Shown here: piece after piece, positions 6,912 to 35,245 of the stretch
Numbering within the stretch: the stretch's first letter is position 1
Layout: every line of letters begins with the position of its first letter
NCBI GenBank assembly: GCA_038728965.1
Contig: JAVYSX010000002.1
Location: 2,122 to 66,121, forward strand
DNA: 64,000 bases
Reading direction: 5' to 3'
DNA from: Thermoplasmatales archaeon
GTDB taxonomy: Archaea; Thermoplasmatota; Thermoplasmata; Thermoplasmatales; GCA-001856825
Program-made: the position numbers and the translations under genes
Notes under the pieces: generated by a model
What the model was told of the DNA's origin: nothing
The model's database searches: none
What the model saw: only the letters and a program-made list of their open reading frames with translations

Positions 6912-7907
6912 TTACTTGTTTTCGCCCCCGATGTTTGCGATTGGCATCTCCCTTGGAACAGAGCCCCTCCTCCGTACGGCAAGCGCATATAGAAAGATCA
7001 TGACTGCCAGTACGATACTTCCCAGAGCTGTTATTGGAAAGAAGGATTCTGCGACCGGGCCCGTGTTAGTTATTGAATCAACCTTAATCGCGCCACCCAG
7101 TATGGTGGGGTATGCCATGAAATTTAAGAGAAAGGATGCGATGGAAACTAGAGCAATAAAAACTGCCTTGTTTGTTACAACCTTTCTCGTTGAAGGTAAG
7201 TAGTAGAGGAATGATAAAAGAACTGCAAGTATGTCCGGTATCACGACATAGGGAGTTAGATGCCAGTTTTTGAACATCTCAAATGATATCGTTGAAACAA
7301 TAACTCCAGTAATTACCAAGATTACAGACGCATTCTTCAGGGATAAGTCGTTATAAAATATTGGAGCCAACCCGATAACTAGAAGAATGGCGCCTACTAT
7401 GAAGACAATGCCGTCGGGGTGCATAATCCACGAATATGCACTGAACGTGAGATTGGAAAGATTTATCCCATTCCCACTAATAATGACTGAAAGAACGACC
7501 AGAACCACGGTACTCATAAGGACCGATGCGATCGCGTATCCCTTGTACAGTTTTTTCTCATCGAGCCATTTCTTTTTTGTAATGAATTCTGCAAAGGATA
7601 TAGCCGTATTTCTTGCTACAAACAATATCAGAAACAGCACTATCGGGAACGAGAAGATCAAAGCTACGGGTACAAGAATGGAAGGGTAAGCCAGATCACT
7701 GGCAACAACCCAGAAAGCAGCGAATGTTCCAGTGACCTCCCATACTGGCACGACGTACGAAAGCACTGCGGCTTTATACCTGTCGTACGCTATCAAAAGA
7801 AGAACAGATCCCATTAGTTCCGTTATCACCAGAGTTACGAACACTGAGAATATTGCAAAGTCTGTGTAGAATATTAGATTAATGTCGACCACCTCCCGCG
7901 CTTGCAA
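6912..7907 (-). CDS. cydB: cytochrome bd ubiquinol oxidase subunit II (divergent)
   Basis: 331 aa polytopic protein that overlaps the cydA stop by 29 nt. VPVWEVTGTFAAFWVV and ARNTAISFAEF resemble the CydB P.WdgNEVWL and RgvafEFR motifs. Confidence 0.7.
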   Translation of the reverse strand: MQAREVVDINLIFYTDFAIFSVFVTLVITELMGSVLLLIAYDRYKAAVLSYVVPVWEVTGTFAAFWVVASDLAYPSILVPVALIFSFPIVLFLILFVARNTAISFAEFITKKKWLDEKKLYKGYAIASVLMSTVVLVVLSVIISGNGINLSNLTFSAYSWIMHPDGIVFIVGAILLVIGLAPIFYNDLSLKNASVILVITGVIVSTISFEMFKNWHLTPYVVIPDILAVLLSFLYYLPSTRKVVTNKAVFIALVSIASFLLNFMAYPTILGGAIKVDSITNTGPVAESFFPITALGSIVLAVMIFLYALAVRRRGSVPREMPIANIGGENK

Positions 7908-9249
7908 TTGAATTTACCTCATTCTTTCGATCTTTTACTGGAGAGGAGTTGAAAATTCTATCGAAGAAGTAGAATGTTGATGGAATTACCACTAAGTAAA
8001 AAGCAATTATGAAATATCCCGGAATCAGAAGACCTGAAGAATTGCTCGCAGCCTGAGACACTGTCATTACGTTATATATGATCCACGGCTGCCTGCCTGC
8101 CTCATCTGTTACCCATCCTAACTCATAGACTATAAATGCAAAAATTCCAGCTATGATCTGAACGTAAAGGATGCCCTTATACTTCATCACGTCTCTCTTA
8201 AGTATCCATATGAGAAATGAAATGAAGAGAAAAAGTCCGAGAATAAGCCCTCCTACCACCATTATGTCGAATGTCGTATGGATCACAAGAGGCGGCCATT
8301 CAGAAGAAGGGAACTGTGTCAGGCCAGGTAGACTTTTTATTCCCGTCTCAAGTGTTGCGAGGAATGACTGAAGTCCTGGTATCGTAATAGCACCAACGAC
8401 GTGCCCATTTACTATGGTCCCGAAGATCTTTTCTGGCAGGTTTGTCCCCGGGTAATAATTTAGGTCTGCTGCCGCATACTTAAGAGGTTGTAGCTTGAGT
8501 ATTGTGGTCATTTCATTAGACCCGGTAATTCCTGCCAGGACTATAGTCACTATGGAAACTATACTTGTCATTCTTACCATAATCGCGTAGAGATTTTTCA
8601 TGGCTGTATCTTTAACCCTTATATATTTATATGAAAAATATGCACCTAGAACCATGGCACCTGCGAAAACTGTCGTTGCTAGGACGTGAGCTACCTCCGA
8701 AAATGTTGACGAGGTGATAAAAGGTGCAAACGCATTGACTCCAGTAACTTTGCCTGTAGTTAGGAATGCTGCTAAATTAAATCCGTTCGGCGAATTCATC
8801 CAGGCGTTGACCATCGTTATAAATACCGCCGATAACAGGGTGCCAAAGAGAATTGTGAAAGATAGCGTGATGTTCGTGTATCTCCATTTGTAAACGTCGT
8901 CAAAGTAAATGTATACTACAAGGGCTATAGTTTCTAGAAAGAATGCGAAGATCTCAGCGTAGAATAGATTTATGGCGCCGGTTTCTGAAACGACGGTCAT
9001 GAATTTTGGGAACAGTGCAACTAACTCAACGGCAAGCACTATTCCGCTAGCAGTGCCGATTCCGAACGATATGACAAATATCTTTCTCAACCTGACTATG
9101 AGGTCATGATATTCTGGGTTTTTCTTGAAAAAGTGGAGAATTTCCGCCGAGAAAATCATTAGTATGATTGAAATGCTCATTGAGACTAATATAATATGAG
9201 AGCCTATCGTAAACGCGAATAGGAATCTATCGAACGTTGCCAACGACAT
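7879..9249 (-). CDS. cydA: cytochrome bd ubiquinol oxidase subunit I
   Basis: 456 aa. N-terminus FDRFLFAFTIGSHIILVS, a Q-loop region, and the C-terminal GWVTDEAGRQPWIIY (the GRQPW signature of CydA). Confidence 0.85.
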   Translation of the reverse strand: MSLATFDRFLFAFTIGSHIILVSMSISIILMIFSAEILHFFKKNPEYHDLIVRLRKIFVISFGIGTASGIVLAVELVALFPKFMTVVSETGAINLFYAEIFAFFLETIALVVYIYFDDVYKWRYTNITLSFTILFGTLLSAVFITMVNAWMNSPNGFNLAAFLTTGKVTGVNAFAPFITSSTFSEVAHVLATTVFAGAMVLGAYFSYKYIRVKDTAMKNLYAIMVRMTSIVSIVTIVLAGITGSNEMTTILKLQPLKYAAADLNYYPGTNLPEKIFGTIVNGHVVGAITIPGLQSFLATLETGIKSLPGLTQFPSSEWPPLVIHTTFDIMVVGGLILGLFLFISFLIWILKRDVMKYKGILYVQIIAGIFAFIVYELGWVTDEAGRQPWIIYNVMTVSQAASNSSGLLIPGYFIIAFYLVVIPSTFYFFDRIFNSSPVKDRKNEVNSIASAGGGRH

Positions 9250-14140: not shown

Positions 14141-14236
14141 CGCCGGGGGGGAGATTTGAACTCCCGATCTCTTGCGAGAACAGGCTTTCTGTGAATTACT
14201 CCAGGCCTGCGCCTTACCGGACTGGGCCACCCCGGC
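14141..14236 (-). tRNA. tRNA-Ser(GGA) with a ~12-nt intron at the canonical 37/38 position
   Basis: Reverse complement reads GCCGGGG-TG-GCCC..GGC-G-CAGGC-CUGGAG[uaauucacagaa]A-GCCUG, then a long variable arm (UCUC-GCAA-GAGA), then GGGAG-UUCAAAU-CUCCC-CCCCGGC-G. The acceptor, anticodon and T stems all pair. Confidence 0.8.
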
Positions 14237-20653: not shown

Positions 20654-20961
20654 CCGCCAGGCTTGGCCGGGAGGATAGGCGTCTCCTGTGACTCGAAACC
20701 GTCTATATGCGAGGGCGACAACCGGTAGAGGTGGCAACAACGGCTACACATTCCCTGGAGGGGCTATGAAGCTCTGTCCTGTTGGATCCTGGTAGCGCAT
20801 CACCTTTCCGGAGGGAAAGGTGGTGTGAATGATCACGGGAACCCGCCAGGACCGGAAGGGAGCAACGGTTACGTGGACCAAGGATGCTGATAGGGGTGCG
20901 GAGCAGAGTGCCGAAGGGGGGAGATGTCATGCCGTTGACCTTCGATATCGGGAGCCTGGCA
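20654..20961 (+). ncRNA. ffs: signal recognition particle RNA (archaeal 7S / SRP RNA)
   Basis: Contains the helix-8 signature GGGAACCCGCCAGGACCGGAAGGGAGCAACGG. The 5' GCCAGGCT (20656) pairs with the 3' AGCCTGGC (20952-20959). Length is about 305 nt and the region is GC-rich relative to its flanks. Confidence 0.8.
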
Positions 20962-29254: not shown

Positions 29255-29647
29255 TTATCCAAATCCGATTACGTCTTTCTTTTTTATGGTGGGCACAGGT
29301 ATCGGAGGCGGGAGCCTGAGATCCCGCGCGACTAGTATAGTCTCAGTGATGCAGGTCGAGAAGATCGCGGCCTGTATCTCTGATGCAACAGGGTCCGGCA
29401 GTACTCTATCCTTTTTCCATTTCATCTCTATTTCCACGTCTCCTGAGTATAGGAGAGAACCCTCTATGCTTATCATCCCCAGGGTTGAAAATGAAGAAGT
29501 GAACTTGTATATTACCCTAAGATATTCACCTTCTACCCTAACATCGACTATGGTTAAATTTTGATCTATTCTAATCTCCTGGGGCTTCGAGTCAATCGGC
29601 ATAATTCTCTTGCCCTCTATTGATGTTATCTCCAGATCCTTTATCAC
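29255..29647 (-). CDS. hypothetical protein with a SecB-like sequence layout (tentative)
   Basis: 130 aa. Its stop is 2 nt from the convergent tfs stop. The C-terminus IQAAIFSTCITETILVARDLRLPPPIPVPTI resembles the SecB LFPYARE.I......G.FP...L.P.NF segment. Confidence 0.45.
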   Translation of the reverse strand: MIKDLEITSIEGKRIMPIDSKPQEIRIDQNLTIVDVRVEGEYLRVIYKFTSSFSTLGMISIEGSLLYSGDVEIEMKWKKDRVLPDPVASEIQAAIFSTCITETILVARDLRLPPPIPVPTIKKKDVIGFG

Positions 29648-30941: not shown

Positions 30942-32600
30942 TCAAGACCGGTTACTTTTTCTTTCTATAAATTCAGGTTCAGATGAATCGCCGACAGGCG
31001 GAATTAGTAGCACATCGGAGCCTTCAGGAATCTTCCCCAGTAAAGAGGGAAATGTCGCAAATACTAGGTCTCCGTAGGTCGCAAGCTTCTCCTCCATTCT
31101 CTTCGGCGATTCAATATCTGAATATTCACATTCTACCGGCCTGACCAACCCGTCTTTCCTTATCATGAGATCTGGTCTCTTCCCTTTATATTCTATTCCC
31201 TCCGTCACGTCGTATCTGCGATTTTTGAAGAAAATATAAGCTCTAGTTATTAGATACCTGTGGAAAAAGGATTCATTGCCCTTCCTCCCCCTCAGTCCCA
31301 TCTTTTTAAAGTAGTCCTCACTCATCACGACCTTTCCGTTGATTACGAATGCCAGGCCCTTGGAAACTAGCTGTGAGACGTATGCAGACTCCATCTTATC
31401 TATTTGAATTTCCAAACAATCTTGAGGATCGTCGTCAAAATCGTAAAAATCCTCCGTTACATGAAAATCTCTCGCCGGGTTCATAGCTTTTAGGGTCCCT
31501 GAAAAAAAAGCCTCGTCACTTGGAACGTAACAGACAAACGAATGGAAGTCTCGCGGCTTAGTTATGCTCTCCTTAATATGTAAAATTTTCCTATCTTCTT
31601 CTGATGTCTGGAACAGGAAGAAATTGTGGACATTTGTTCTTATGGAGCTTGTCAAGTTGGGAGGAAGTGAGCTTAATGACTGAGTAGCCATAGCTGACCA
31701 GAGGGAAAATTTCCTTCCCTCGGATACGATCCTTACTAGTATGGAAGGGGATAGGGTCTGCAGCTCGTCCATTACAACAACCACGTTCCTCATCCTTTTC
31801 AGGATTACGTTGATCCATATCTTGTACAGGAGCATTATTGAAAAAGATCTGACGAGAGATTGTGCAGAATGTTCGCCAGAAAGGTCAAAATAAACAGTAC
31901 CTGAGAGTTTTGAGATATCAAAATAATCCCTCCTGGATGAGAAAAGGTTTTTCGAGGTGACCTCTGACAGCAGCGGAAGAATTTTGTTAACCGTGGAAGA
32001 AATGAAATCATAGCCCATGTTGAAGATCGAGTACAACTGTTTTTTCTCCTCAGGCTCCAGCGAACTCATGAAATCCCTCCTCTTGTAAAAGTCTAGAAGG
32101 ATGTCTGCGATGTCCTGCAGCGACGGTTCTATCCTGTATTTAAAGAGGAGCCTGGGTACGATCGTGAAGATGAGTTCGACCCTAGGACCCCATGTACCGA
32201 TAGAAAAGGCATCTTCTGTTGAAAATATATCCTTTAAATTGCGAATGACAAGATCCTCGATTATTAACCTTTCAGTCTCGTTCTGATATGGCAGAACAGC
32301 CATCATATTAAACCTAAGGTACCCTGTTTTCCTCCCAATAAATGGGGAAATCGTGACTATCTTTGCTTTTTCCCCTGAAAATTTCCAGAGTTCACCGTGA
32401 GGATCTAGAACAATGACTGTCATACCTAGGTTCTCGTAAGCGTTGATGAGTGATGCAAGAAGCCTTGATTTGCCGGTGCCTGTCTTACCGAGAACGAGCG
32501 AATGTGCGCTCAGAAATTCATCCGGGATAGCTATCCTCTTACCTGTGAGAGGCATGAGGATACCGCTTTCATAGGGCCAGTAATCGATCATCTGAACCAC
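30942..32600 (-). CDS. HerA/FtsK-superfamily P-loop ATPase fused to a C-terminal CoiA-like PD-(D/E)xK nuclease-type domain
   Basis: Walker A LGKTGTGKS (aa 37-45) is followed by VIVLDPHGE, then Walker B VVVVMDELQ (aa 273-281) and SEGRKFS. The C-terminus reads NESFFHRYL...VTEGIEYKGKRPDLMIRKDGLVRPVECEYSDI (aa 441-496). There is no N-terminal HAS barrel. Confidence 0.75.
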   Translation of the reverse strand: MVQMIDYWPYESGILMPLTGKRIAIPDEFLSAHSLVLGKTGTGKSRLLASLINAYENLGMTVIVLDPHGELWKFSGEKAKIVTISPFIGRKTGYLRFNMMAVLPYQNETERLIIEDLVIRNLKDIFSTEDAFSIGTWGPRVELIFTIVPRLLFKYRIEPSLQDIADILLDFYKRRDFMSSLEPEEKKQLYSIFNMGYDFISSTVNKILPLLSEVTSKNLFSSRRDYFDISKLSGTVYFDLSGEHSAQSLVRSFSIMLLYKIWINVILKRMRNVVVVMDELQTLSPSILVRIVSEGRKFSLWSAMATQSLSSLPPNLTSSIRTNVHNFFLFQTSEEDRKILHIKESITKPRDFHSFVCYVPSDEAFFSGTLKAMNPARDFHVTEDFYDFDDDPQDCLEIQIDKMESAYVSQLVSKGLAFVINGKVVMSEDYFKKMGLRGRKGNESFFHRYLITRAYIFFKNRRYDVTEGIEYKGKRPDLMIRKDGLVRPVECEYSDIESPKRMEEKLATYGDLVFATFPSLLGKIPEGSDVLLIPPVGDSSEPEFIERKSNRS

Positions 32601-33126
32601 CGTTTATAAGTGTTGATATTTCAGGATCAGTCAGTATCATAGGGTGTCCTTTTGCAAATGTAATCGATTGTCTGCCACTTGACGATGTATACCTCCTTAA
32701 CAGGATTGGGGTAAATATCTTGACCAGATACATAGGTCTGTTGGTTTTGAATCCCAGAGTTTTTTTCTTCCATGGGTTTAAAGTCCTGTAGCTCTCAGTC
32801 TTGACGAATATTCTTTCCCCGGTATTGAGACCTAGGACCGTCTCCAAGATGAACGGAAAGGCAACGAATAGGGCATACCTAGGTTTGTTTGAGAGGAATA
32901 CATTTTCACTCCATCTGAACTCGTAATAAATCCGCTCAACCCTGTTACCCAATATTTCTGAAAGCAACCTTGCAACATCATTGCCAATCTCCCCGTCAAA
33001 GAATGTTATGGACACCGTGTTACTCTTGGCAATCGACATCTCTATTTCTCGACCGACGAGAAGTAGGTTCAGTACTTCCCTGAGGTTGGTTGTATCAGTT
33101 ATGAACGTGCGCCAGCAAAGAGACAT
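32569..33126 (-). CDS. hypothetical protein, middle gene of the ATPase operon
   Basis: 185 aa counted from the ATG at 33126 (the track uses a TTG at 33144). That ATG overlaps the upstream ORF stop (TGATG), and the 3' end overlaps the ATPase start by 23-32 nt. No motif recognised. Confidence 0.55.
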   Translation of the reverse strand: MSLCWRTFITDTTNLREVLNLLLVGREIEMSIAKSNTVSITFFDGEIGNDVARLLSEILGNRVERIYYEFRWSENVFLSNKPRYALFVAFPFILETVLGLNTGERIFVKTESYRTLNPWKKKTLGFKTNRPMYLVKIFTPILLRRYTSSSGRQSITFAKGHPMILTDPEISTLINGGSDDRLLAL

Positions 33127-33263
33127 CAGGATCCTTCCTCGCAAAACAGATTCAAATATTTCTCCATTAGGCTCTCACTACCCCCACACTCAGCCCAAAA
33201 AAAGGTTCCGAATTTTCGAAACGGGCTAAAATAATAAAATTCTTTCAGAATTTTCTTTTCCAT
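33126..33263 (-). CDS. small ORF (45 aa), first gene of the ATPase operon (tentative)
   Basis: The ATG at 33263 is preceded by GGAGGG 6 nt upstream, giving MEKKILKEFYYFSPFRKFGTFFWAECGGSESLMEKYLNLFCEEGS. Its stop overlaps the next start. The track lists a longer TTG-initiated 74-aa version. Confidence 0.35.
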   Translation of the reverse strand: MEKKILKEFYYFSPFRKFGTFFWAECGGSESLMEKYLNLFCEEGS

Positions 33264-33506
33264 AGTGGTCCCTCCTACCCATTTTCGCTTTAGGAACGCT
33301 TGGGTATAAGACAAAGTACTCCTATAACCGGCATCACGCACGGTTTTCAACTGTAAATGCTGAATAATCCACGAAAACGGGCTATTCCAAATAGTTTAAC
33401 CCTCTATATAAATGTTTTCATGAATAACGGTTCCACGGTCCAGGTATGGGGTGAGAGAAATCGTCAAAAGGTTAATATCAAAATAAATAAAAATATAAAA
33501 TAGAAT

Positions 33507-33776
33507 TTACTTGTATTTAATTTTTGAAGATGCGCTGAAGTGCACTTTGTTCTTTGCCGGGACTTTTATTATCTGCTTTGTTCTTGGGTTCTTTGCGTTC
33601 CTCGCCTTTGTCATCTTTCTCGAAAATATTCCGAATCCAGCTATCCTCACCTTTTGGCCTTTGTTGATATTGGTCACGATTGTCTTGAAGGTTTCCCTGA
33701 TTACTGATTCAGCGCTTCTGACAGATACGCCAGAACTTTTTGCAACATCCCTGGCGATCTCGTTTATTCCGACCAT
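33507..33776 (-). CDS. hup: HU-family DNA-binding protein (HTa-like archaeal chromatin protein)
   Basis: 89 aa reading MVGINEIARDVAK...GQKVRIAGFGIFSRK..ARNAKNPRTKQIIKVPAKNKVHFSASSKIKY. This closely parallels the HU fold and Thermoplasma HTa. Confidence 0.9.
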   Translation of the reverse strand: MVGINEIARDVAKSSGVSVRSAESVIRETFKTIVTNINKGQKVRIAGFGIFSRKMTKARNAKNPRTKQIIKVPAKNKVHFSASSKIKYK

Positions 33777-34348: not shown

Positions 34349-35245
34349 CTAAAAAAGGAATAAATTTTTTCCTTCACTCAAAATTTCAGAGATCAATTTT
34401 CTAGCCTCATGAAGGTCTATAGGTGGTGAGAATGATATTGTCACAATGTTGTTGTCAATAGATGCTTGAAACATGGCTGGTCCGTAGGGTTGTTTAAACG
34501 CAAGGAGACCTCCGATATCGTAGAATGCATCGTAGAAGTTCCCATCCCTCCTCAGATTATAATAATTGCTTTTACCGGGAAAATCTTTCCTTGAAAAATC
34601 TATCCAGATTGTCCTACGCGTAAAATCTTCGCTAAATATTGAAATTCTCTGAACAATATTACCTCCCTCCGTAAGTGTTCCTACCGAGTCTGGTTTGAAT
34701 CTATCCCACCCCGCAGGCTCGGTAAGCGGAGTCCAGCTAAGGGACGCAATCCTTCGTTCTTCAAACCAGTCCGGTTTTCCCCCGCGCGCAAAGAACGACC
34801 TGTTGCAAAAACGGAGGTTTTTAAACCCATCCATTTTCATAACAGGTACCAAAGTTTTGCTCACCTCCTCCACTAATTTTCTGCTTTCCCCTTCGATCTC
34901 CACCTCCGTACCCAGGACGAAGGAGGAAGAGGCGTGCATATCTTTATAATCCTTTCCCACGAAGTAAACATACCCGCGCCCCGCTGCAGTTTCAACCCTG
35001 GTATACGTAGAGACAAAGGAGTTCATTAAATTCTTAGGGAACCCCTGATAGAACCAATCGAGGAAGAACTCCTTAACCCTTGCTTTTCCAGAATCAGTAG
35101 CTAGCTCAAAGCGAATAGTACTCCATTTCGTTCCCTCTGGTCTTAGCGTTGCATTGAAAATTTCACAACACGAAGGTTTGAATATCAGGAACGGCAGGGA
35201 TACCTGAACCGACTCAAGTCCCTCTACTTCCAGATACCTCTCCAT
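34349..35245 (-). CDS. hypothetical protein
   Basis: 298 aa soluble ORF, 3 nt upstream of the CoA-binding gene (probable operon). No motif recognised. Confidence 0.5.
   Translation of the reverse strand: MERYLEVEGLESVQVSLPFLIFKPSCCEIFNATLRPEGTKWSTIRFELATDSGKARVKEFFLDWFYQGFPKNLMNSFVSTYTRVETAAGRGYVYFVGKDYKDMHASSSFVLGTEVEIEGESRKLVEEVSKTLVPVMKMDGFKNLRFCNRSFFARGGKPDWFEERRIASLSWTPLTEPAGWDRFKPDSVGTLTEGGNIVQRISIFSEDFTRRTIWIDFSRKDFPGKSNYYNLRRDGNFYDAFYDIGGLLAFKQPYGPAMFQASIDNNIVTISFSPPIDLHEARKLISEILSEGKNLFLF

Follow-up and report, generated by a model that had tools for sequence, protein, structure and literature searches.

A Predicted Translocase-Nuclease of Coupling-Protein Type and Its Probable Orphan Partners in the Thermoplasmatales

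Introduction

What is the role of a predicted DNA-translocating ATPase that carries a nuclease-like domain at its C-terminus and whose gene overlaps that of an orphan protein? The question is raised by a minus-strand locus in a 64,000-nt stretch of contig JAVYSX010000002.1 from a Thermoplasmatales archaeon (hereafter the window), in which a 45-aa open reading frame (ORF), the gene for a 185-aa protein (p185) and the gene for a 549-aa ATPase follow one another in an overlapping chain. An earlier note on this DNA described the locus as a HerA-like ATPase-nuclease fusion with two orphan partners and framed it by comparison with anti-phage systems. The reading favored here, to which we assign a probability of about 50%, is that the locus encodes a DNA translocase-nuclease that is driven by ATP and works on the cell's own DNA, a lineage-specific housekeeping machine that has so far gone undescribed.

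The motors of archaeal recombination and chromosome segregation are incompletely known, with the branch-migration enzymes being debated, and we know of no clear FtsK in the archaea. If true, an order-wide single-copy translocase-nuclease of coupling-protein ancestry would be a new player in archaeal DNA processing, and its existence would mean that motors of the conjugation type can be co-opted for core tasks on the chromosome.

Gene Organization and Conservation

Homologues of the ATPase fall into two subtypes, the 549-type with about 32 full-length relatives of about 545 aa (44-100% identity) and the 650-type, of about 650 aa and 25-30% identity, which includes Thermoplasma volcanium TVG0369160. 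The ORF caller returned the three minus-strand ORFs of the window as 30942-32600 (552 aa, GTG start), 32569-33144 (191 aa, TTG start) and 33126-33350 (74 aa, TTG start). All homologues start the ATPase at ATG 32591, 23 nt before the p185 stop codon (32569-32571), which places that stop codon inside the ATPase gene by 23 nt; the ATPase itself terminates at 30942-30944. At the upstream junction the TGA of the 45-aa ORF and the ATG of p185 have one base in common (TGATG, 33128-33124). The ORF list and the sequence bear out the chain of three ORFs proposed in the earlier note, and the ribosome-binding site before the 45-aa ORF, the TGATG overlap and the overlap of the 185-aa ORF with the ATPase start were all found as it had described them, the last being 23 nt when counted from ATG 32591.

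The overlap between p185 and the ATPase measures 20-37 nt and was kept in all of the 20 549-type loci fetched, down to 44% ATPase identity. Because a p185 homologue lies directly upstream of the ATPase and overlaps it in each of the 20, the two are true genes that are inherited together, and the persistence of the overlap indicates that they are probably translationally coupled.

In the databases the ATPase is labeled only as 'DUF87 domain-containing'. The architecture of a soluble FtsK-HerA ATPase with a restriction-endonuclease (REase)-fold C-terminus and an orphan partner matched no curated family above threshold and no description of it was found in the searchable literature, in agreement with the initial impression that it fits no recognized family, with a passing mention of the Thermoplasma family in a survey of the FtsK-HerA superfamily (Iyer et al., 2004) being possible. 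In three metagenome-assembled genomes the ATPase is frameshifted (L021 6001-7618; L023 5467-7628; L047 651-2230), with p185 broken too in L023; these ATPases keep high identity and could be either assembly indel errors or recent pseudogenes.

The ATPase Module

Residue numbers given below are those of the 549-aa protein and invariance was judged over an alignment of 44 homologues. The hallmark HerA/FtsK motifs that had first drawn attention to the protein, GKTGTGKS (35-42), VLDPHGE, VVVVMDE and EGRKF (291-295), are all present and invariant or nearly so, with GKTGTGKS, D275/E276, R293 and Q304 being invariant. The module matches Pfam DUF87 (51 bits against a cutoff of 23.2) and TrwB_AAD_bind (27.8 bits against 20.5), with the 650-aa orthologues spanning positions 12-333 of 387 of the latter profile (E 6.5e-14 for the orthologue P0056) and also matching TraG-D_C and T4SS-DNA_transf. 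Foldseek comparison of the AlphaFold2 (AF2) model of the ATPase (predicted local distance difference test, pLDDT, 83.7) with PDB structures gave TrwB with E 5e-12 and a template-modeling (TM) score of 0.54-0.59 normalized to the target, HerA structures being level with TrwB; TdpA, SIR2-HerA and DUF4297-HerA were also matched.

Because TrwB_AAD_bind is matched above its cutoff and the fold matches TrwB, profile and model evidence places this soluble ATPase within the FtsK-HerA superfamily in the coupling-protein clade, that of TrwB/VirD4, and not with HerA proper. The term 'HerA-like' used previously is imprecise, the protein standing nearer to TrwB/VirD4. The absence of a HAS barrel, noted from the start, is confirmed, as Walker A already lies at residues 35-42 and leaves no room for one; the AF2 model has only short strands in the 34 residues that precede it. 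Curated models give the same picture, with the ATPase falling far short of the cutoffs of the HerA, TraD, CedD and VirB4 models, including the NCBIfam HerA families NF040819 (33.3 bits against 970) and NF040937 (18.2 against 800), while Pfam FtsK_SpoIIIE (PF01580) reached 17.1 bits against 24 for a protein that has no transmembrane segment. CedD and TraD were the top NCBIfam matches, both far under cutoff. An identification as CedD was considered and rejected on account of its score (NF053655, 35.2 bits against 600) and a different architecture, CedD having a transmembrane domain and a VirB4-like N-terminal domain (PMC11868833) while the window ATPase lacks a transmembrane segment.

The ATPase shares with TrwB, VirD4 and TraG (PF10412, PF02534; PDB 1E9R/1E9S/1GKI) a nucleotide-binding domain with an inserted all-alpha domain and the Walker motifs. 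It differs from them in having no N-terminal membrane anchor and no nearby type IV secretion system (T4SS) or relaxase genes, in its chromosomal core context and its added C-terminal nuclease-fold domain, and in that the N-terminal domain appears to have been split off as a separate protein.

As T4SS coupling proteins are the closest family by both profile and fold, a DNA-transfer or uptake motor has to be considered, in which a domesticated coupling protein would export or import chromosomal DNA between wall-less Thermoplasmatales cells in a Ced/Ted- or T4SS-like manner, with the nuclease nicking or processing it. This would be in keeping with CedD and TraD being the best NCBIfam matches and with a fused relative in phage G adjoining a VirB-like gene. 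However, hydropathy scans revealed no transmembrane segment in the ATPase of either subtype and no membrane anchor in p185 or in the linked protein p298 (see below), no VirB4, VirB6/CedA, pilin or relaxase gene lies in the neighborhoods read, and the CedD score is a small fraction of its cutoff for a protein of another domain composition, such that a transfer role is distinctly unlikely.

HerA-NurA (PDB 4D2I, 9X1L) likewise combines an FtsK-HerA motor of similar ATPase fold with a nuclease encoded by an overlapping gene and acts on chromosomal DNA, as the window system is only predicted to do. The differences are that the window ATPase is without the HAS barrel and that its nuclease is a fused PD-(D/E)xK domain rather than a separate dimer of the RNase H-like NurA; no nurA, mre11 or rad50 gene was found around the ATPase in the window or at any related locus that was read.

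The C-Terminal Nuclease-Like Domain

The ATPase module is joined to the C-terminal domain by a linker of low confidence whose predicted elements are H402-410, E414-417, E420-423 and H425-431 (H, helix; E, strand). Beyond it the two subtypes, which are only about 25% identical, share the invariant residues H444, P473-D474, E487-x-E489, S491-D492 and K502. In the AF2 model the domain comprises H442-457, E461-463, E475-479, E482-488, H496-506 and E510-513 (pLDDT 75-90), an alpha-beta-beta-beta-alpha-beta order in which D474 lies just before strand 2 and the ExE motif where strand 3 ends. E489 stands in place of lysine at the third catalytic position, with the invariant K502 on the next helix. Profile searches gave sub-threshold matches to REase_MTES_1575 in 6/21 members (best 1.4e-4), CoiA_nuc in 2/21, YraN in 2/21 and AHJR-like in 1/21, and hhalign aligned the domain with Hjc (E 1.7e-3, probability 15%), pairing PD474 with Hjc D33 and E487-x-E489 with Hjc E46-x-K48. 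The order of secondary structure and the catalytic positions agree with nucleases of the Hjc/YraN/REase_MTES_1575 type, from which the window domain differs in the sub-threshold similarity, in having E rather than K at the third position and in being tethered to a predicted ring ATPase rather than a free dimer.

The invariant motif, the predicted topology and the weak profile matches, which are indirect evidence, support the assignment of the domain as REase-fold and PD-(D/E)xK nuclease-like, of a D-ExE variant, in agreement with the nuclease-like C-terminus reported previously. The only result of a PDB profile search with the domain, polyubiquitin, was spurious and arose from a short LEVEPSD-like motif.

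A hidden Markov model (HMM) of the domain matched all of the sequences P0001-P0058 with the exception of P0029, which is truncated, and did not match any of P0059-P0120, the remoter ATPases. Because the HMM finds every complete Thermoplasmatota member and no more distant ATPase, the ATPase-nuclease fusion is, by this profile criterion, confined to the Thermoplasmatota, present in every complete member and family-defining.

The glutamate at the position of the ExK lysine, together with the lack of a profile match at family threshold, would also be consistent with a catalytically dead domain that serves for DNA binding or oligomerization only, the protein then being a pure translocase such as a soluble FtsK-like segregation motor. 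Against this, the acidic motif residues together with H444, S491, D492 and K502 are invariant at about 25% identity, which would be unusual for a decayed site, and the same D-ExE variant of the active site is found in BamHI, where it is active. A dead domain is therefore very unlikely.

The Probable Partner Proteins p185 and p298

The two orphan partners of the earlier note fared differently, with p185 proving a solid family while it is doubtful that the 45-aa ORF supplies a protein component, its peptide being barely conserved (see below). Members of the p185 family are 22-81% identical with 16 invariant columns, and the family is small, amounting to 10 clusters in 1.84 billion representatives. 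The AF2 model of p185, built from five sequences (pLDDT 86.4, predicted TM-score 0.83), has two alpha/beta lobes, the first of which is a ferredoxin-like beta-alpha-beta-beta-alpha-beta unit; against the PDB it gave no fold match under E 0.06, with weak partial matches that included the ferredoxin-like S6, PII and Cas6. A 1486-aa repeat protein (P0134) recovered in the p185 representative search was discarded as a repeat artifact.

Relationships of p185 were instead traced through a chain of profile comparisons. The p185 profile matches 216-219-aa proteins that overlap the starts of some 650-type ATPases (probability 83%, E 1e-5, 154 columns), and these upstream partners in turn match the N-terminal domains (N-domains) of fused ATPases of 700-900 aa (probability 84%, E 7e-6) that occur in DPANN archaea, bacteria and Bacillus phages. 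Against BFVD, the p185 model matched large proteins of Bacillus phages, among them phage G gp156, which together with SPO1 gp27.4 is a full-length homologue of the fused ATPases. Because a gene-fusion (Rosetta-stone) chain runs from p185 through the 216-219-aa partners to the fused N-domains and gp156, p185 is probably the free-standing counterpart of the N-domain and hence a subunit of the ATPase. Three genes overlap in one 650-type clade (L025 2-1125, L028 4809-5959, L037 4788-5959), coding for an orphan (about 170 aa), for a p185-like protein (about 218 aa) and for the ATPase; the family of about 170 aa has no Pfam match.

The uncharacterized fused [N-domain]+VirD4-like ATPases (SPO1 gp27.4, phage G gp156, phrog_5156; DPANN, bacteria, PF26449) have an ATPase core homologous to that of the window and an N-domain akin to the upstream partners that are encoded as separate proteins and, at the level of fold, to p185. 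They differ in that each is one polypeptide of 700-900 aa, frequently with a transmembrane segment at the N-terminus, and in lacking the nuclease domain. The family is widespread in Bacillus phages (82 phage records), and the gene for phage G gp156 (L072, 90448-93666) has a VirB-like gene on one side and a gene for an HNH endonuclease on the other. What is new in the window system is the fused nuclease, the split-off N-domain and the core chromosomal status, the pairing of motor and nuclease being itself already known.

A second conserved orphan, overlooked by the earlier note and better conserved than the 45-aa ORF, is p298, a 298-aa protein with a KEFFLDWF motif and 28 invariant columns. It was found in 16/33 650-type loci, where it is mostly the immediate neighbor of the ATPase. 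Among 549-type loci, the window and ten relatives have it on the strand of the ATPase at a distance of 1.7-3 kb upstream. Because the linkage persists across both subtypes, p298 is probably a functional partner of the ATPase. Searches with p298 gave no match in Pfam, PDB or PHROG and detected no relatives of known function; matches to antibody heavy chains were dismissed as noise.

Genomic Context and Distribution

When GTDB representative genomes were scanned, at least 42 archaeal loci were found, each from a different assembly and thus one copy per assembly. Among the matches listed, nearly all were labeled Thermoplasmat-, including I-plasma, E-plasma, Oxyplasma meridianum and Aciduliprofundum, and the others were remote bacterial matches to the ATPase core only. 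The gene order in the 549-type is p298, CoA-binding, HTa, leader, p185, ATPase, queD, queC, p130, TFS, Trm5, UPPS and TiaS, or a variant of this, while many 650-type loci have a 116-aa protein, an FAA hydrolase, the ATPase, p298 and UDG. Divergence of the ATPase is correlated with that of p185, QueD, QueC and p130 (Spearman 0.74-0.88). A phage search with the ATPase gave no matches and matches to plasmid coupling proteins were remote, at no more than 26% identity. In keeping with the earlier observation that no mobile-element marker flanks the locus, no integrase, transposase or defense gene was called in the neighborhoods read. Because the gene is single copy, lies in housekeeping synteny and diverges together with its neighbors, the locus appears to be a vertically inherited core gene, and a mobile defense island is unlikely.

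These observations also bear on the anti-phage framing of the earlier note, spelled out here as a HerA-type motor and nuclease that would degrade invading virus or plasmid DNA, with p185 as a sensor or regulator. The HerA defense systems (SIR2-HerA/Nezha, DUF4297-HerA, TdpAB and MADS mad8) have the same motor-plus-effector design, pairing an ATPase with a nuclease is common defense logic and DUF4297, like the C-terminal domain of the window protein, is a PD-(D/E)xK nuclease; the ATPase core matches those of defense HerAs in the PADLOC models (mad8 E 1.4e-12, HerA models to 6e-12) as well as in the structures of TdpA, SIR2-HerA and DUF4297-HerA, and p185 and the ATPase evolve faster than their neighbors. 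However, the PADLOC search that the earlier note had proposed gave matches to the ATPase core only, with none for p185 or the small ORF and no meaningful one for the nuclease domain, such that the similarity is confined to a generic core. In the HerA defense systems the effectors are separate proteins that dock on the HAS barrel, which the window ATPase lacks, and these systems are patchy and island-borne whereas the window system is, among the matches listed, found once per genome, in fixed housekeeping synteny across deep divergence and vertically inherited. No called neighbor has the Pfam domains of Sir2, DUF4297, mad1-7, TdpB or DndF/G, and neither a methyltransferase nor another known-system partner lies nearby. 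Taken with the co-divergence noted above, this evidence tells against the anti-phage framing, and a defense function is unlikely.

The position of queD, which starts 42 nt past the ATPase stop on the same strand, and the presence of queD and queC after the ATPase in every 549-type locus with recovered downstream flank could suggest a 7-deazaguanine link, with the ATPase-nuclease and queD-queC forming a Dpd-like DNA modification/restriction system. However, a 113-aa opposite-strand gene intervenes in many relatives, queC or queD lies near none of the 33 650-type loci, such that the linkage is clade-specific, and no DpdA-like gene was seen near the locus. QueC and QueD are in any case required for archaeosine in archaeal tRNA, and we regard this link as exceedingly improbable.

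Several features of the neighborhoods were noted in addition. The gene for HTa, an HU-type chromatin protein (33507-33776, minus strand), is 94-98% identical across related loci and identifies its host as one of the Thermoplasmatales, and p130, a 130-aa orphan encoded just downstream of queC (29255-29647, minus strand), has no Pfam match and is found in nearly all related loci at 61-89% identity. In ten related loci the ATPase and queD are separated by the 113-aa opposite-strand gene (in L002 at 7629-7970, minus strand), which is absent from the window. A link to ESCRT was considered for the T. volcanium pair, which is divergent from arCOG07400-Vps4-ESCRT-III, and was set aside as coincidence, being absent in Thermoplasma sp. 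and all other loci; a survey of ESCRT makes no mention of such adjacency (PMC11188069). Adjacency to archaellum genes was likewise set aside as a single case (L071).

Proposed Function

In the favored reading a housekeeping translocase-nuclease would be expressed from an operon with the layout promoter, short hairpin-containing leader ORF, p185 and ATPase-nuclease. By analogy with the coupling-protein clade, the 549-aa protein would assemble into a hexameric ring, threading DNA and moving along it by ATP hydrolysis, with six PD-(D/E)xK (D-ExE) domains on flexible tethers, one per subunit, which would couple translocation to DNA cleavage. Most probably p185 would be a subunit docking on the ring to select substrates or to exert regulation, and p298 may be a third component that helps to choose or gate the substrate. 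The cell's own DNA would be the likeliest substrate because the gene is single copy, syntenic with core genes and co-diverging with them; this DNA could take the form of broken ends, stalled forks, Holliday junctions or unsegregated or dimeric chromosomes. The hexamer, DNA translocation, nuclease activity, p185-ATPase complex and cellular role are what we infer from the gene, domain and context evidence set out above.

A more specific version, which we put forward tentatively and hold to be less probable than the general one, is that a conjugative coupling-type motor was domesticated in the Thermoplasmatota, with its N-domain split off as p185 and a Holliday-junction-resolvase-like nuclease fused to it, to give a lineage-specific core chromosome-maintenance machine, a single-polypeptide engine for branch migration and cleavage or for end processing, possibly working with p298. 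If this chromosome-maintenance reading were true, it would represent a previously unrecognized class of apparatus for DNA repair or segregation in archaea.

A number of points weigh against the housekeeping translocase-nuclease. The single copy and the taxonomic range rest on the matches listed, which are not exhaustive. Mean identity to the window proteins is 57% for the ATPase and 42% for p185 compared with 68-74% for the neighbors, a faster evolution that would fit a conflict-related role too, and none of the neighboring genes hints at a particular pathway of repair or segregation. The nuclease assignment is based on sub-threshold profile matches to a domain in which glutamate replaces the canonical ExK lysine. 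In the p185 homology chain each link is only about 83-84% probable, p185 matches the fused N-domains only weakly when compared with them directly (E 2e-3 over 20 columns), and the upstream partner in Thermoplasma (206-208 aa) has no detectable similarity to p185 nor to the 218-aa partners and fused N-domains. Finally, no experiment or published description was found in the searchable literature for any member of the family.

The predictions of the favored reading are testable as Thermoplasma species are culturable. The system would give a first functional handle on the larger family of [N-domain]+VirD4-like ATPases in DPANN archaea, bacteria and Bacillus phages, SPO1-like ones among them, and it defines two orphan families, p185 and p298, for structural and biochemical study.

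The Leader Region

Upstream of p185, the AGGAGG and ATG of the 45-aa ORF are invariant in four loci (the window, L068, L021 and L001), and 12 of the 15 relatives examined have an ORF that stops at the p185 start or just short of it, with peptides that are poorly conserved and barely align. Compared with a relative of 90% identity, the leader ORF is 69% identical at the amino acid level with 6 synonymous and 13 nonsynonymous codon changes, against 44 and 35 for p185 and 119 and 58 for the ATPase. Its best-conserved nucleotides form a terminator-like hairpin, GTTTCGAAAATTCGGAAC, which is followed by a T-run and is read in different frames in different clades; the stem is kept in 5 related loci, with double-sided pairing-preserving changes at 4/15 pairs. 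We read the 45-aa ORF as a leader or coupling ORF that may be translated, or possibly as an attenuator, and not as a protein component, and the hairpin together with the conserved Shine-Dalgarno sequence and ATG suggests attenuation-type control of p185 and ATPase expression. That the leader ORF might be a remnant of the third gene of about 170 aa found in L025, L028 and L037 gained no support from hhalign.

Further upstream, a purine-rich stretch followed by TTTATATA looks like the BRE/TATA (B recognition element and TATA box) promoter of the operon, the block AAAAAATTTATA being kept in four related loci. In the predicted 5′ leader the block GTGCGTGATGCCGG (33328-33341, minus strand) is also kept in four related loci and may be a regulator binding site.

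Features of the Locus and the Window

The features of the locus are listed in Table 1.

Table 1. Positions in the window of the genes, protein segments and putative control elements discussed in the text.
Feature	Position	Strand	Basis
ATPase-nuclease gene, 549 aa from ATG 32591	30942..32591	-	ORF list; start fixed by homologue lengths
p185, 185-aa partner protein	32569..33126	-	Conserved upstream of every 549-type ATPase
45-aa leader ORF	33126..33263	-	Shine-Dalgarno sequence and ATG in sequence; stop overlaps p185 start
p298, 298-aa orphan, KEFFLDWF motif	34349..35245	-	Linked to ATPase in both subtypes
ATPase module, aa 1-385	31437..32591	-	Invariant columns, AF2 secondary structure
Walker A, G35-S42 (GKTGTGKS)	32466-32489	-	Invariant in 44 sequences
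Helical insertion, aa 105-217	31941-32279	-	AF2 secondary structure
Walker B (VVVVMDE) with D275/E276	31764-31781	-	44-sequence alignment
EGRKF (aa 291-295) with R293	31707-31721	-	44-sequence alignment
Low-confidence linker, aa 386-440	31272..31436	-	pLDDT 37-61; small helix-strand-strand-helix element
PD-(D/E)xK-type nuclease-like domain, aa 441-535	30987..31271	-	Invariant motif, predicted topology, weak profile matches
Shine-Dalgarno sequence, AGGAGG(G)	33270..33276	-	AGGAGG at 33276-33271; 7 nt upstream of ATG 33263
Terminator-like hairpin GTTTCGAAAATTCGGAAC, then T-run, inside 45-aa ORF	33195..33222	-	Terminator scan
Archaeal promoter-like element, purine-rich stretch and TTTATATA	33405..33419	-	About 140 nt upstream of leader ATG

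Two RNA genes lie elsewhere in the window. A 96-nt tRNA (14141-14236, minus strand) was called by Rfam (46 bits) and not by ARAGORN and is probably an intron-containing archaeal tRNA, and a full-length archaeal signal recognition particle RNA was found at 20655-20961 on the plus strand (176 bits).

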